From: an uncultured Gammaproteobacteria bacterium
GTDB lineage: Bacteria; Pseudomonadota; Gammaproteobacteria; Chromatiales; Chromatiaceae
NCBI GenBank assembly: GCA_963841065.1
Contig: CAWJBI010000031.1
Coordinates: 80,674-144,673, forward strand
DNA length: 64,000 nucleotides
Direction of reading: 5' to 3'
Positions 4,047 through 21,118 of the stretch are shown here, one piece after another (position 1 is the first letter of the stretch; every line of letters starts with the position of its first letter). A model generated the notes under the pieces. It ran no database searches. It had not been told where the DNA came from and was given only the letters and a program-made list of their open reading frames with translations. A program made the translations under genes and the position numbers.

Positions 4047-5399
4047 ATGGCGGCCCCTTCCTCGGCAAGTCCGGCCACCCACGCCATGGCCCCCCTGGCG
4101 GAGCGCATGCGTCCCCGCGCGCTGGCGGAATTCCGTGGCCAGGCCCATCTGCTCGCCCCTGGGAAGCCCTTGCGCCGGGCGATCGAGATGGACCGGCCTC
4201 ACTCCATGATCTTCTGGGGGCCGCCGGGCACGGGCAAGACGACCCTGGCGCGGCTGCTGGCGGGCTCTTCCGGTTGCCACTTCATGCGCCTCTCGGCGGT
4301 CCTCTCCGGGGTCAAGGACATTCGCGAGGCGGTGGCGGAGGCCCGGCGGGTGCGGGCCGCGGACGGGCGGGGCAGCATCCTCTTCATCGATGAGGTCCAT
4401 CGCTTCAACAAGGCCCAACAGGATGCCTTCCTGCCCCATGTGGAGGAGGGGACCCTGGTCTTCATCGGCGCCACCACCGAGAATCCCTCCTTCGAACTCA
4501 ACAATGCCCTCCTGTCCCGCGCCCGGGTCTATGTCCTCAAGGCCCTGGAGCTCGAGGACCTGGAAGGGGTCATGGATCAGGCCCTGGCGGATCGGGAGCG
4601 GGGCCTGGGGCAATTGGGGTTGACCCTGGCCCCCGAGCAGCGACGGGTGCTGGCGGAGGCGGCGGATGGCGATGCCCGCCGGGCACTCAATCTGCTGGAG
4701 TTGGCGGCGGACCTGAGCGAGGGCGGGGAGATTGGCGAAGGGGTGGTGACGGAGGTCATCGCCGGTCATGCGCGCCGGTTTGATAAGGGCGGCGATATCT
4801 TTTATGACCAGATCTCCGCCCTGCACAAGTCGGTGCGCGGCTCGGCCCCGGACGCGGCCCTCTATTGGCTGGCGCGCATGATCGACGGCGGTTGCGATCC
4901 CCTCTATATCGCCCGGCGGGTGGCGCGCATGGCCAGCGAGGACATTGGCAATGCCGATCCCCGGGCGCTGGAGTTGGCTCTAAACGCCTGGGATGTGCAG
5001 GAGCGTCTGGGCAGTCCCGAGGGGGAGCTGGCCATTGCCCAGGCGGTGGTTTATATGGCCTGCGCGGCGAAGAGCAATGCCGTCTATCTGGCCTGGAAGG
5101 CCGCCCAGGAGGATGCCCGCCAGTCCGGCTCCCTGGAGGTCCCCGTCCATTTGCGCAATGCCCCGACCCGGCTCATGAAGGAGCTGGGTTATGGTCATGA
5201 CTATCGCTATGCCCATGATGAGCCGGAGGGCTATGCCGCCGGCGAGGTCTATTTCCCCGATGGTCTGCGGCCACGACGCTATTACGCACCGGTGGATCGT
5301 GGGTTGGAGATTCGCATCCGGGAGAAGCTGGTGCACTTGCGGGAGCTGGATAGGCTGGCGCGGGCGGGGTCTGGTGCTCCTGTCCGGGGGACGCCGTAA
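4047..5399 (+). CDS. rarA: replication-associated recombination protein A (AAA+ ATPase RarA/MgsA)
   Basis: Walker [20 protein letters not shown], and the C-terminal MgsA block [23 protein letters not shown]. The last 11 codons and the TAA stop lie inside the palindromic element 5366-5467. Confidence 0.9.
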
Positions 5400-5467
5400 A
5401 TCCATCCCTGGAGGCCCGGGCATGGCATCCCTGCCATGCACGCCCCCGGACAGGAGCACCAGACCCC
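5366..5467. repeat. nested-hairpin palindromic element, copy 1 (25-bp perfect outer stem + 52-nt core)
   Basis: GGGGTCTGGTGCTCCTGTCCGGGGG (5366-5390) is the exact reverse complement of 5443-5467. The core 5391-5442 aligns without gaps to 19563-19614 (37/52 identical) and forms two hairpins with TCCC loops. Confidence 0.75.
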
Positions 5468-5602
5468 GCCAATGAGGATCTGGCGGCTAGGTACCCCGGG
5501 AGTAACGGCTGCCCGGCCTTGGCAAGGGCCGCGATCACTGGGGGTGTTTTGCTGGGTTTAGGAAATATTTTTCGATCGTAACATATTGATGCGGCGTCAT
5601 TA

Positions 5603-6491: not shown

Positions 6492-7754
6492 ATGGATCCC
6501 AGTCAGGCTCATTCACCCAACCCCCACCAGGAACTGCCCCTGACCCTTGTTCTGCGGGTATTTTTACCCTTCGCCGCAGGCTATTTCCTGTCCTATCTGT
6601 ACCGAACCATCAACGCGGTGCTGGCCCCGGAGTTGGAGTCCGCCCTGGGACTCGATGCCGCCGCCCTAGGGCTGCTCACCAGTGTCTACTTTTTGACCTT
6701 CGCGGCCTTTCAGTTGCCCCTAGGCATCCTGCTCGACCGGTTCAGCCCTCATAAGGTGGAAAGCCTGCTGCTGGTGTTGGCTGCCGCCGGTGCCCTGCTG
6801 TTCGCCATCAGCGATAGCCTGGGGGACCTGGTATTCGGGCGGGCGCTGATCGGCCTGGGGGTGTCGGCCTGCCTGATGGCCAGCCTGAAAACCTTCGTCT
6901 TGTGGTTTCCACCCCAACGCCTGCCTGCGGTGAACGGCTGGGTGCTGGCGGCTGGCGGTTTGGGTGCCCTGACCGCGACCACGCCGGTGGAGTGGGCCAT
7001 GGACCTTACCTCCTGGCGGGGGGTCTTCGCCGGCCTGGCGGTTTTGACCCTGCTGGCGGCGGCGGTGCTGTTCCGGGTGGTTCCGGACAAGCCCGCATCG
7101 GCTCATGCGGGGGACTGGCGGGTTCAGTGGCGCGGTATCGTGGCGATATACACCAGCCGGGTATTCTGGCGTCTGGCCCCCATCAGCCTGCTGGTGATGA
7201 GTACCCACATGGCGATTCAGGGTCTCTGGGCGGGGCCCTGGCTAAGGGATGTGGCGGGTCTCGACCGGATGGCGGTGGCGGATCACCTCTTCTGGGTCGC
7301 GGCGGGCATGGTGGCCGGTTTTTTGTCGATCGGCACCCTGGCCTATCGTCTCAGCCGTCTGGGGATTCCACCGGTGGCGGTCTCGATCGGCGGCGTGGTC
7401 ATTTTCCTCGCGCTGCAGTTGATCCTGGCCCTGGGCTATACCGGCGCTACCCTGCTGATCTGGCTGGGCTTTGGCTTCTTTGGCACCTCCGCTAACCTCA
7501 GCTATGCCGTCCTGTCGCAGACCTTTCCGCGGGAATTGGCCGGGCGGGTGAACACGGCCCTGAACCTGCTGGTCTTCGTGGGCGCCTTCGTCATGCAGTG
7601 GGGCCTGGGCGCCGTGATTGGACTCTGGCCGGCCACCTCCGGGGGCTATGCCCCCCATGGCTACGGCGTGGCCTTCGGCCTGGTCCTGGTGCTGCAGCTT
7701 GCCGCCTTGGGTTGGTATGGGTTCGCGGGCCTGGGGCGCAAACCCAAGGCCTGA
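6492..7754 (+). CDS. MFS transporter
   Basis: 420-aa ORF with about 12 hydrophobic segments and a glycine-rich MFS-like loop pattern. Confidence 0.8.
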   Translation: MDPSQAHSPNPHQELPLTLVLRVFLPFAAGYFLSYLYRTINAVLAPELESALGLDAAALGLLTSVYFLTFAAFQLPLGILLDRFSPHKVESLLLVLAAAGALLFAISDSLGDLVFGRALIGLGVSACLMASLKTFVLWFPPQRLPAVNGWVLAAGGLGALTATTPVEWAMDLTSWRGVFAGLAVLTLLAAAVLFRVVPDKPASAHAGDWRVQWRGIVAIYTSRVFWRLAPISLLVMSTHMAIQGLWAGPWLRDVAGLDRMAVADHLFWVAAGMVAGFLSIGTLAYRLSRLGIPPVAVSIGGVVIFLALQLILALGYTGATLLIWLGFGFFGTSANLSYAVLSQTFPRELAGRVNTALNLLVFVGAFVMQWGLGAVIGLWPATSGGYAPHGYGVAFGLVLVLQLAALGWYGFAGLGRKPKA

Positions 7755-7827
7755 CGGGAACCGGCCCGGCGGATTTTGTGACGCCCCATTAAGGCGTGGC
7801 GCCTACGCCACGCCTTCGAGCCCTTTG

Positions 7828-18990: not shown

Positions 18991-19485
18991 TTAGGGAGGC
19001 GTCTTGGCATCGGCAATGACCAGCACCCCATCCGCGTCGGCGTAAAGCATATCACCCGGCCGGAATTCCACTCCGGCAAAGCTAAGGGTCACCTGGGTCT
19101 CGCCCAGACCGCGCTTGTCACTTTTGCGGGGGAACGTGCCCAGCGCCTTGACGCCCAAGGGCATATGGACCATGTCGGCGCTGTCGCGGATGTAGCCATG
19201 CACCAGCACCCCGGCCCAGCCGTTATCCACCGCCTGTTGGGCCAGCAGGTCGCCGAGCATGGCGCAGCGCGGCGAGGCGTCGGCCTCGATGACCAGCACC
19301 CGACCCTGGCCGGGTTCGCCCAGCAGTTCCCGTACCTTGGAATTATCGTCCGGGCAGCGCACCGTGGCGATGGGGCCGTGGAAGTCGGTCCGCCCGCCAT
19401 AGTCGCGGAACAGGGGGGCGCAGATCTGGGCCTTATCCCCCCGTTCGTCGCTCAAATCAGTTGTTTTCAGGCTATGCAATGTCAT
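18991..19485 (-). CDS. rraA: RraA-family protein (RNase E regulator / HMG-aldolase fold)
   Basis: ATG at 19485 gives MTLHSLKTTDLSDE... Blocks GRVLVIEADASPRCAMLGDLLAQQAVDNGWAGVLVHGYIRD are present. 164 aa. Confidence 0.85.
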   Translation of the reverse strand: MTLHSLKTTDLSDERGDKAQICAPLFRDYGGRTDFHGPIATVRCPDDNSKVRELLGEPGQGRVLVIEADASPRCAMLGDLLAQQAVDNGWAGVLVHGYIRDSADMVHMPLGVKALGTFPRKSDKRGLGETQVTLSFAGVEFRPGDMLYADADGVLVIADAKTPP

Positions 19486-19530: not shown

Positions 19531-19646
19531 GGTGCCGGGTACCGGGTAACGATCGGCGGGGGACGCCGTGAATACATCCCTGTAGGCTTGACGACAGCAT
19601 CCCTGCTGTCGACACCCCCGCCGATCGTTACCCGGTACCCGGCACC
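19531..19646. repeat. nested-hairpin palindromic element, copy 2 (32-bp perfect outer stem + 52-nt core)
   Basis: GGTGCCGGGTACCGGGTAACGATCGGCGGGGG (19531-19562) is the exact reverse complement of 19615-19646. The core 19563-19614 is homologous to 5391-5442 and lies in the same plus-strand orientation. Confidence 0.75.
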
Positions 19647-19690: not shown

Positions 19691-19725
19691 AAAAAGCCGG
19701 CCCCAGTTACCCAGGACCGGCTTTT
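19691..19725 (-). terminator. rho-independent terminator after aceA (bidirectional form)
   Basis: AAAAAGCCGGCC-loop-GGaCCGGCTTTT. The GC stem is flanked by an A run and a T run, and sits about 70 nt downstream of the aceA stop. Confidence 0.6.
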
Positions 19726-19795: not shown

Positions 19796-21118
19796 TCAAT
19801 GGTCGAACTGGGCCTCTTCGGTGGAGCCGGTGAGGGCGGTCAGGGAGGAGGTGCCGCCCTGGATGACGGTGGTCACGTCATCAAAGTAGCCGGCGCCCAC
19901 TTCCTGCTGATGGGAGACGAAGGTGTAACCCTTTTCGCGTGCCTGGAATTCAGGTCCCTGTACCTTCTCGACATAGTGGCGCATGCCCTCGCCGCGGGCG
20001 TAGTCGTAGGCCAGGTCATACATGTTGTACCACATGCTGTGAATGCCGGCCAGGGTGATGAACTGGTACTTGTAGCCCATCGCGGACAGCTCATCCTGGA
20101 ACTTGGCGATGGTCTTGTCGTCCAGATTCTTCTTCCAGTTGAAGGAGGGCGAGCAGTTGTAGGCCAACAGCTTGTTGGGGTTCTGCGCCATCAGGGCCTC
20201 GGCGAATTCACGGGCGAAGCCCAGGTCCGGGGTACCGGTCTCGCACCACACCAAGTCGGCGTAGGGGGCATAGGCAAGGCCACGGCTGATGGCCTGCTCC
20301 AGACCATTCTTGACGTTGTAGAGGCCCTCGGCGGTGCGGGTGCCCAGGAGGAAGGGCTTGTCGTTGGCATCGAAATCGGAGGTCAGCAAGTTGGCCGCCT
20401 CGGCGTCGGTGCGGGCCAGCACCAGGGTGGGGACGCCGCAGACATCCGCCGCCAGGCGGGCGGCGATGAGCTTCTGTACCGCCTCCTGGGTGGGGACCAG
20501 GACCTTGCCGCCCATGTGGCCGCATTTCTTGACGGCGGCCAACTGGTCCTCGTAATGCACGCCGGCGGCGCCGGCGGCGATCATGTTCTTCATCAATTCG
20601 AAGGCGTTCAGCACGCCGCCGAAGCCCGCCTCGGCATCCGCCACAATGGGCAGGAAGTGGTCGATATAGCCCGCGTCGCCGGGGCCAACACCACGGCCCC
20701 ACTGGATCTCGTCGGCGCGCTTGAAGGTGTTGTTGATGCGCCGGACCATGGTCGGCACCGAGTCATAGGCGTAGAGGGACTGGTCCGGATACATGGTCTC
20801 GGAGGTGTTGCCGTCGGCTGCCACCTGCCAGCCGGACAGGTAGATGGCCTCGACGCCGGCCTTGGCCTGCTGCATGGCCTGGCCCGCGGTGATGGCGCCC
20901 ATGCAGTTGACGTAACCCTTACGAGCAGCGCCGTGGATCAGTTCCCAGAGCTTTTCGGCCCCGTTGCGGGCATAGGTAAATTCCGGCTGCACGGACCCGC
21001 GCAGGCGGACCACATCGGCGGCGGTATAACCACGGCTCACATCCTTCCAGCGGGGGTTGCTGGCCCATTCCTTCTCCAGGGCCTGAATCTGTTGCTCTCG
21101 GGTCATCATTTTCGACAT
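19796..21118 (-). CDS. aceA: isocitrate lyase
   Basis: 440 aa. Catalytic loop [14 protein letters not shown]. The N-terminus [28 protein letters not shown] is typical of ICL. Confidence 0.92.

Follow-up and report, generated by a model that had tools for sequence, protein, structure and literature searches.

The foldback at positions 19531-19646 of the 64-kb window (the whole stretch of DNA that was analyzed) lies between two open reading frames (ORFs) on the minus strand, aceA (19796-21118) and rraA (18991-19485). Read along that strand, aceA is followed by a terminator-like hairpin (19692-19725, minus strand), which was detected as an inverted repeat and lies upstream of the foldback in the direction of transcription; then come the foldback, which we call copy 2, a further 45 nt, and the rraA start codon. 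The inverted repeat is as the earlier note on this DNA described it, with 32-nt arms that are 100% complementary and 52 nt between them. The left (5′) outer arm (19531-19562) is G+T-rich and is the perfect complement of the right (3′) outer arm (19615-19646), which was identified in an inverted-repeat search. The conserved 52-nt core (19563-19614) is on the plus strand, which corresponds to the orientation of the Rfam family Ysr224, and the neighboring genes are on the strand opposite to it. Both RNA and DNA folds place two hairpins within the core. Hairpin 1 (19565-19587, plus strand), which is also supported by covariation, consists of GCC, a GTGAA internal loop, TACA-TCCC-TGTA, and GGC; hairpin 2 (19589-19614, plus strand) consists of 2 bp, an A·A mismatch, and an 8-bp stem closed by a TCCC loop. 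There are two CATCCNTG motifs, separated by 23 bp.

We used a simple terminator scan, together with the sequence itself, to examine the ends of copy 2. No T tract follows the stem, in agreement with the earlier note, and copy 2 is not an intrinsic terminator. On the plus strand the stem is followed by AAAAAATT, so that on the minus strand a T run precedes the stem. A simple scan found no promoter-like or terminator-like site around copy 2.

The window contains a second foldback, copy 1, whose 52-nt core is at 5391-5442 (plus strand). Its stem had been described as perfect over 25 bp; it is perfect, but it extends over 28 bp, from the left arm at 5363-5390 to the right arm at 5443-5470, which was found in the inverted-repeat search. 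The 28-nt left arm encodes the last residues (..AGSGAPVRG) of a RarA-like ORF (4047-5399) that ends inside copy 1, the TAA stop codon (5397-5399) forming positions 7-9 of the core. RarA homologs P0001-P0006 and P0049 end in ..GAPVRGTP, as do all RarA proteins of this clade. The tail of the RarA-like ORF (11 residues), which derives from the left arm and the core, is kept in relatives down to 86% identity. Among the matches listed, 75 of 77 family copies have TGA or TAA at the core position of this stop codon.

When the two cores were aligned without gaps, 37 of 52 positions were identical, and all five compensated core pairs that had been named from the sequence proved correct. The comparison also revealed a sixth compensated pair, core 27:52 (T-A vs C-G). 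A 25-nt core consensus occurs twice in the 64-kb window, against 0.00 occurrences expected from shuffled sequences. RNA folds had energies of -92 to -95 kcal/mol (z -10 to -13.5) on both strands and DNA folds about -60 kcal/mol (z about -15), and both gave a predicted three-way junction formed by the outer stem and the two small hairpins. A covariance model run on the 64 kb detected only these two copies, with 87.8 and 85.4 bits; the next match scored 15 bits.

Scanning species-representative genomes with the exact pattern GCCGTNAANNCATCCCTGNAGGC identified at least 119 loci. All hairpin-bearing matches listed were from Gammaproteobacteria or unclassified Pseudomonadota MAGs. Among the matches listed were Chromatiaceae, Thioalkalivibrio, Ectothiorhodospira, Xanthomonas, Stenotrophomonas, Steroidobacteraceae, Microbulbifer, Marinobacter, Alteromonas, Rheinheimera, Pseudohongiella, Methylomicrobium, Salinivibrio, Zobellella, Pantoea, and others; the orders with the core are Chromatiales, Xanthomonadales, Alteromonadales, Pseudomonadales, Methylococcales, Vibrionales, and Enterobacterales. 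A match in one viral contig and another in an alphaproteobacterial locus (L060) were set aside as chance occurrences of the pattern without the hairpin. E. coli genomes contained no copy, and a plasmid search returned two Yersinia records only. With the covariance model, we obtained 127 matches in 100 loci among the matches listed.

In nearly every copy, the same T-shaped core is held between arms of 20-32 bp that differ between lineages and often within a genome. For 110 copies among the matches listed, the median arm was 26 bp; 36 copies had perfect arms, and 157 of 2496 pairs were mismatched. The arms of the matches listed group into about 36 similarity clusters. The outer stems, described as unrelated, are so between the two window copies but not wholly so across the family, where there are lineage subfamilies with conserved inner, and sometimes outer, segments. 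In Pseudohongiella-like genomes and Microbulbifer, copies within one genome have a common core and common inner and outer stem segments and differ in the middle stem segment, which is fully complementary. Xanthomonas genomes repeat the entire unit within a composite of ~400 bp (a dimer plus spacer). The arms are not enriched for Chi-like content (1 of 84 arms).

Some loci departed from this plan. In Pseudomonadales and Pseudohongiella MAGs (L045, L051, L054, L061, and L079), the element lies inside a larger conserved unit (GGCTTCGATCCGTCGCCG ... CGGCGACTCACATTGTGCAG) that is often followed by a second, unrelated repeat (..GCGGAGCGAAGCGGAGTCGCAGA..). An extra branched insertion of 40-55 nt within hairpin 2 occurs in L057 (5718-5837 and 6082-6201), L058 (3320-3420), L115, and L022; in L057, both members of the dimer carry the same insertion. 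In L070 (Zobellella; 7478-7545 and 7699-7766), a 221-bp tandem duplication spans the element and its flank.

The earlier note argued for selection on structure, and the family bears this out. In 77 copies among the matches listed, 90.2% of cells were paired, compared to 68.4% in shuffled alignments and 33-47% when partners were slid, and double-sided changes numbered 443, compared to 136 after shuffling (hairpin 1 is partly fixed by the search pattern in this set). A model-derived alignment that includes copies missed by the pattern, and that leans towards structure because it is fitted to the model, had 94.1% of cells paired, and 23 of 25 pairs, including two of hairpin 1, varied on both sides. 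In this alignment, the second stem pair of hairpin 1 is AU in 35 copies and CG in 26, and the first is UA in 51 and CG in 9. All 10 pairs of hairpin 2 vary on both sides across the family, while the GTRAA internal loop of hairpin 1 is invariant. The three helices are therefore strongly supported by covariation. The consensus reads outer stem, AC, GCC-GTRAA-(4 bp-TCCC-4 bp)-GGC, T, (2 bp, R·A mismatch, 8 bp, TCCN loop), outer stem.

Mismatched and wobble pairs carry strand signals of their own. In the arms of the 110 copies among the matches listed, mismatches that are C·A or A·C on the core plus strand (G·U on the minus strand) outnumber G·T or T·G mismatches by 74 to 20. With one copy taken per arm cluster, again among the matches listed, the arm mismatches compatible with minus-strand G·U pairing prevail by 28 to 7 (p = 5e-4). 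The loop-closing pairs of both small hairpins alternate between A-U and G·U on the plus strand (17 and 18 cases), and the 5′ arms are G+T-rich on both strands. We rejected wobble-compatible mismatches as a guide to the functional strand, since the arms and the core helices contradict each other.

Although the element had been taken to be unnamed, its core is homologous to the center of the Yersinia YPAL/RU-2 miniature insertion sequence (PMC2759123) and to Rfam RF02770, Ysr224. The 168-nt RU-2 of Y. pestis CO92 is given in Table 1b of Delihas 2007 (PMC2759123), and RU-2 is the YPAL of De Gregorio et al. 2006. The published Y. pestis CO92 RU-2 contains cgtccgcgccaaggatggcgcggctcgagcctacatggatgtatttacggcgt. 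This stretch corresponds to the core in reverse complement, and its first 26 nt match copy 2 at 24 positions. The Ysr224 consensus (...GACGCCGUaAAUaCAUCCaUGUAgGCuCGagccGCGCCaUCCcuGGCGCggACg...) represents the same core and aligns to both window copies in plus orientation, with 38.7 bits (E 5e-8) for the best match and 23 bits for the other, compared to a gathering score of 70. At gathering thresholds, neither the window nor any of 19 other gammaproteobacterial loci gave an Rfam match. The many microRNA matches at the Rfam E-value level were discarded as generic long-hairpin matches. In the reverse search, a Yersinia copy scored 71 bits with the covariance model built from the family. The homology to YPAL is limited to the central ~52 nt: the two window copies have arms that resemble neither the RU-2 arms nor one another, and the window units, at 108-116 nt, lack homology over the whole YPAL unit of ~168 bp. 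Judged by sequence, YPAL/RU-2 (Rfam Ysr224) is the described member of a large gammaproteobacterial family of palindromic repeats.

YPAL/RU-2 is about 168 bp long, is not AT-rich, and contains internal inverted repeats; its target duplications vary from 3 to 26 bp, its insertion sites coincide with or adjoin dyad symmetries shortly after stop codons, and it is co-transcribed and influences transcript levels (PMC2229807). Both Ysr224 and YPAL have been detected as RNA (PMC9029176, PMC2229807). Genome surveys list Ysr224 as one of the most abundant "sRNAs"; it has multiple copies in Y. ruckeri and is reported as a temperature-responsive sRNA whose copies are expressed differently. The core sequence itself did not occur in a full-text literature search. 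On the Y. pseudotuberculosis plasmid pYPSE1-1 (L165), a direct repeat of 13 bp (GCCTACTGGCTCG; 2437-2449 and 2619-2631) encloses a YPAL copy, as would fit the target duplications of variable length that are reported for YPAL.

We recovered aceA-rraA spacers from metagenomes by way of RraA. A 164-aa RraA identical to that of the window was found in metagenomes, and one spacer (L124) is identical to the window. In a relative whose RraA is 85% identical (L125), the core is identical at 52 of 52 positions, compared to 86-88% identity in the flanks, and it lies in the opposite orientation relative to the flanks from that in the window. Because this orthologous copy is inverted, the common plus-strand orientation of the two window copies, which the earlier note had remarked upon, is no signal. 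The 25-bp stem of L125 differs from that of the window at 5 of 25 positions, each matched on the other arm, and both stems are perfect. Since five double changes without mismatched intermediates have accumulated over about 13% neutral divergence, independent mutations are hard to invoke. The arms of the copy-2 lineage resemble runs of GGGTNNC heptads (window, 19531-19562; L125, about 565-606; L016, near the start), and in L125 extra heptads are present on one arm only, which suggests that slippage may contribute to arm turnover in this lineage. L016 was considered as an ortholog and rejected; its core is near-identical, but it lacks synteny with the window.

Four further relatives at the aceA-rraA locus (80-82%; L126-L128 and L163) lack the element, as does L121, and their spacers are too diverged to align; a clean empty site was not recovered among them. 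At the rarA locus, five orthologous copies share an invariant 26 nt of hairpin 2, with flanks down to about 80% identity, and their arms carry compensated changes at positions 7, 8, 10, and 19 as well as uncompensated ones. In L123, the core is identical at 50 of 52 positions, compared to 81% in the flanks. Between Arsukibacterium and Rheinheimera, the whole element at an orthologous locus is flipped, asymmetric arm mismatches included.

Contigs that encode an RraA identical to the window's allowed comparison within the population. The standard allele is present in L172, L173, and L178. In L174, the right (3′) arm of copy 2 has a 10-nt deletion, and in L179 the hairpin is lost except for 13 nt of the left arm, with ggtgccgggtacc joined to ccttgggtg; from the 13 nt of arm that are retained, this looks like a deletion. 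L175 and L176 are fold-back chimeric assemblies at the copy-2 hairpin. An apparent within-population flip in L177 was dismissed, as the contig comes from a k=31 assembly and the 32-bp arm exceeds k, so that orientation is not resolvable; flips in core orientation were seen only between species. The orthologous loci thus show that the core helices are under purifying selection, that the long arms drift yet stay complementary, implying compensation, and that the whole unit is both invertible and losable by hairpin-associated deletion.

To describe placement, we used a heuristic gene caller that was checked on the window. Among the matches listed, copies lay between convergent genes in 36 cases and between divergent genes in 18, and the 5′ side of the core faced the 3′ end of a gene 79 times and the 5′ end 48 times (60 and 36 times for single copies). 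An element in plus (Ysr224) orientation is thus, in most cases, read in the sense direction of the gene upstream of it. This holds for copy 1 and for the L125 ortholog of copy 2, but not for copy 2 itself. Where copies were <450 nt apart, 20 pairs were convergent, none divergent, and three direct among the matches listed, and in 16 of 18 cases the gene to the left of a close pair ended towards it. Such pairs (L006 888-1210, L044 383-611, L062 3119-3362, L039 2415-2645, L095 6558-6792, L052 5148-5468, and 14 more) have spacers of 90-400 nt, and the arms are particular to each copy. In L052 (5100-5555; Steroidobacteraceae), two copies are directly downstream of aceA, between aceA and icd. Their arms are unrelated to those in the window, and the element probably inserted independently here, behind the 3′ end of aceA as in the window.

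As the earlier note stated, there is no RAYT or transposase gene adjacent to the window copies. A search for a transposase between or beside copies of the family found none; the genes between distant pairs are housekeeping genes, such as hisA/hisF and eda. Self-complementary repeats flank the S. maltophilia Y1 transposase Smlt1152, an arrangement described as a "TIRtron" (PMC3733652). However, a full-model search of three Y1 loci from one Y1 subfamily (L166/L167, L168, and L169) found no copy. In S. maltophilia L166/L167 (1430-1500 and 2240-2290), the repeat on either side of the Smlt1152-type gene is self-complementary but a different one (GGGGTCAGAGCCCTTTCGC..GCGAAAGGGATCTGACCCC), in agreement with the TIRtron description. 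We therefore rejected a TIRtron/TIRYT partner for that Y1 subfamily. Neither window copy has a flanking direct repeat of ≥7 nt; family-wide, flanking direct repeats show a weak excess, with eight observed and about three expected among the matches listed. Since the element-free spacers are too diverged to offer a clean empty site, we infer rather than observe the mobility of the window-type variant.

The foldback is one copy of a palindromic repeat that is widespread, and probably mobile, in Gammaproteobacteria. What defines the family is the center and not the ends: the 52-nt core forms a T-shaped three-way junction on a stem of 20-32 bp, and each lineage, or even each copy, can have an outer stem sequence of its own. 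The reading that we favor, and hold to be reasonably likely, is that of a non-autonomous repeat of the YPAL superfamily that is co-transcribed and acts as a stable hairpin. Such a repeat could be dispersed by an enzyme acting in trans that reads the core or the fold instead of terminal sequences. Copies would land mostly just downstream of genes and be co-transcribed with them, and by analogy with YPAL the long hairpin may act on mRNA processing and decay; a perfect stem of 28-32 bp would also suit as an RNase III-type substrate. Arm-to-arm conversion or template switching could keep the arms complementary. Several points speak against the repeat reading: the searches found no transposase partner, no target-site duplication at the window copies, and no clean empty site; homology to YPAL is confined to the central ~52 nt; the strand signals of the arms and the loop-closing pairs conflict; and strong conservation of the core at fixed loci is not expected for a purely selfish repeat.

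In one alternative, a DNA-level element has been domesticated by the host, with the core duplex or an extruded T-shaped cruciform serving as a binding or processing site for a conserved gammaproteobacterial protein. REP/BIME elements, for example, bind gyrase or IHF. At such a site, orientation relative to the neighboring genes would be irrelevant, and the core is indeed perfectly conserved yet inverted between orthologous loci, under purifying selection in situ. The strictly Watson-Crick pairing of many arms, which do not tolerate G·U (36 of 110 are perfect among the matches listed), the high stability of the DNA hairpins, and the paired CATCCNTG motifs at their 23-bp distance would also fit. 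We nevertheless consider a domesticated DNA site unlikely, though the strongest of the alternatives: copies are biased in orientation relative to upstream genes, both loop-closing pairs switch between A-U and G·U on one strand, which suggests pairing in RNA, transcripts of Ysr224 and YPAL have been detected (PMC9029176, PMC2229807), and there is no candidate protein. Another alternative is a family of structured non-coding or cis-regulatory RNAs in which the hairpin is the functional product, for example an RNase III substrate or an sRNA such as Ysr224, with copy 2 regulating rraA or aceA. Covariation is strong in three helices, Ysr224 is reported as temperature-responsive with copies that are differently expressed, and copy 2 is situated between the aceA terminator and the rraA start. 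Against this, hundreds of dispersed copies adjoin unrelated genes, the copy between aceA and rraA is flipped in L125 and missing from L126-L128 and L163, the scan around copy 2 revealed no promoter-like site, and Rfam gave no gathering-score match in the window or the 19 other loci. An RNA family of this kind appears quite improbable to us. The dispersed multicopy distribution and the invertibility also make it unlikely that the element is a dedicated strand-specific RNA gene.

Invertibility could instead point to a miniature invertible switch (inverton), in which the arms are recombination sites and a flip of the core toggles a function. Inverted orientations at two orthologous loci would agree with such a switch, as would the near-identical population contig L177, which appears flipped; the orientation of L177 is not resolvable in a k=31 assembly with a 32-bp arm, however, and the Arsukibacterium/Rheinheimera flip takes the whole element, arms included. 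In addition, a 52-bp invertible segment is very short, the core has no promoter, and no recombinase gene is adjacent, all of which leaves a switch with very little probability. Finally, a chance foldback or decaying local duplication that belongs to no family is for practical purposes ruled out. Apart from the presence of only two copies in the window, nothing favors it, and the shuffle controls, at least 119 loci elsewhere, and the covariation all argue against it.

We return to the YPAL-superfamily repeat. To date, YPAL/RU-2 has counted as a repeat of Yersinia and Erwinia, and Ysr224 as an sRNA of Yersinia. The analysis makes the center of YPAL/RU-2 a module common to many gammaproteobacterial orders and carried on interchangeable stems, so that recognition for spread or upkeep would have to fall on the center and the fold and not on the termini. 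A bolder proposal, which we regard as speculative and rather unlikely, is that the core is the recognition module of an undescribed, structure-directed mobilization or maintenance system across Gammaproteobacteria, or that a conserved host factor has come to use it, through domestication, as a site in DNA or RNA. Were such a system to exist, the arms would be rebuilt or homogenized from each other by fold-back or template-switch synthesis, with the result that every copy has a private perfect stem and is able to flip; domestication of the core, on the other hand, would account for the purifying selection seen at fixed loci. The covariance model and the core consensus provide a handle on the partner enzyme or host factor through phylogenetic profiling. 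There are practical consequences as well. In short-read assemblies, perfect palindromes of 25-32 bp give rise to fold-back chimeras, broken contigs, and ambiguous orientation; the elements also provide genes such as rarA with C-terminal extensions and stop codons, and they inflate sRNA counts in Rfam-based surveys.

As far as the literature that we found goes, the design with a conserved center, variable arms, and invertibility is apparently undescribed. The YPAL/RU-2/Ysr224 superfamily is known; to our knowledge, the pan-gammaproteobacterial conservation of the core, the invertibility, and the private perfect stems are new. The window copies resemble YPAL/RU-2 in the homologous central ~52 nt, with the same two hairpins and the same GTAAAT and CATCC(A/C)TG motifs, in forming long hairpins that are not AT-rich, in having internal rather than terminal inverted repeats, in being multicopy, and in their extragenic position, often at or just after stop codons. 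Moreover, copy 1 supplies the stop codon and a C-terminal extension of rarA, much like RU-2 gene fusions. They differ in that the YPAL unit of ~168 bp is conserved end to end and has target duplications of 3-26 bp, whereas the window copies have only the core in common, their arms of 28-32 bp are shorter, perfect, and different within one genome, no duplication was seen, and the host is Chromatiaceae-like, far from Yersinia. The Ysr224 model, for its part, is narrow, has a different annotated structure, and misses the family in the 19 other gammaproteobacterial loci.

The element was correctly set apart from several other classes. Integron attC sites have conserved outer R″/R′ boxes (RYYYAAC / GTTRRRY) around a variable center; by inspection, the outer ends here are variable and lack GTTRRRY, and it is the center that is conserved. 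Like REP/BIME/REPIN sequences, the copies are extragenic palindromes that are enriched between convergent and co-directional genes, frequently form inverted dimers (20 of 23 close pairs here are convergent), and likely exert effects as RNA hairpins. Unlike REPs, which are palindromes of 20-40 nt with conserved stems, variable loops, and an unpaired GTAG or CGTC tag, they are units of 108-116 nt in which the stems vary and the central loop region is conserved. With canonical MITEs (Correia/NEMIS, ERIC, and RUP) they share small size, lack of coding capacity, dispersal, hairpin formation, and co-transcription. Canonical MITEs are, however, defined by conserved terminal inverted repeats and have fixed target duplications, often TA; in this family, the termini differ between copies of one genome, and the center defines the element.
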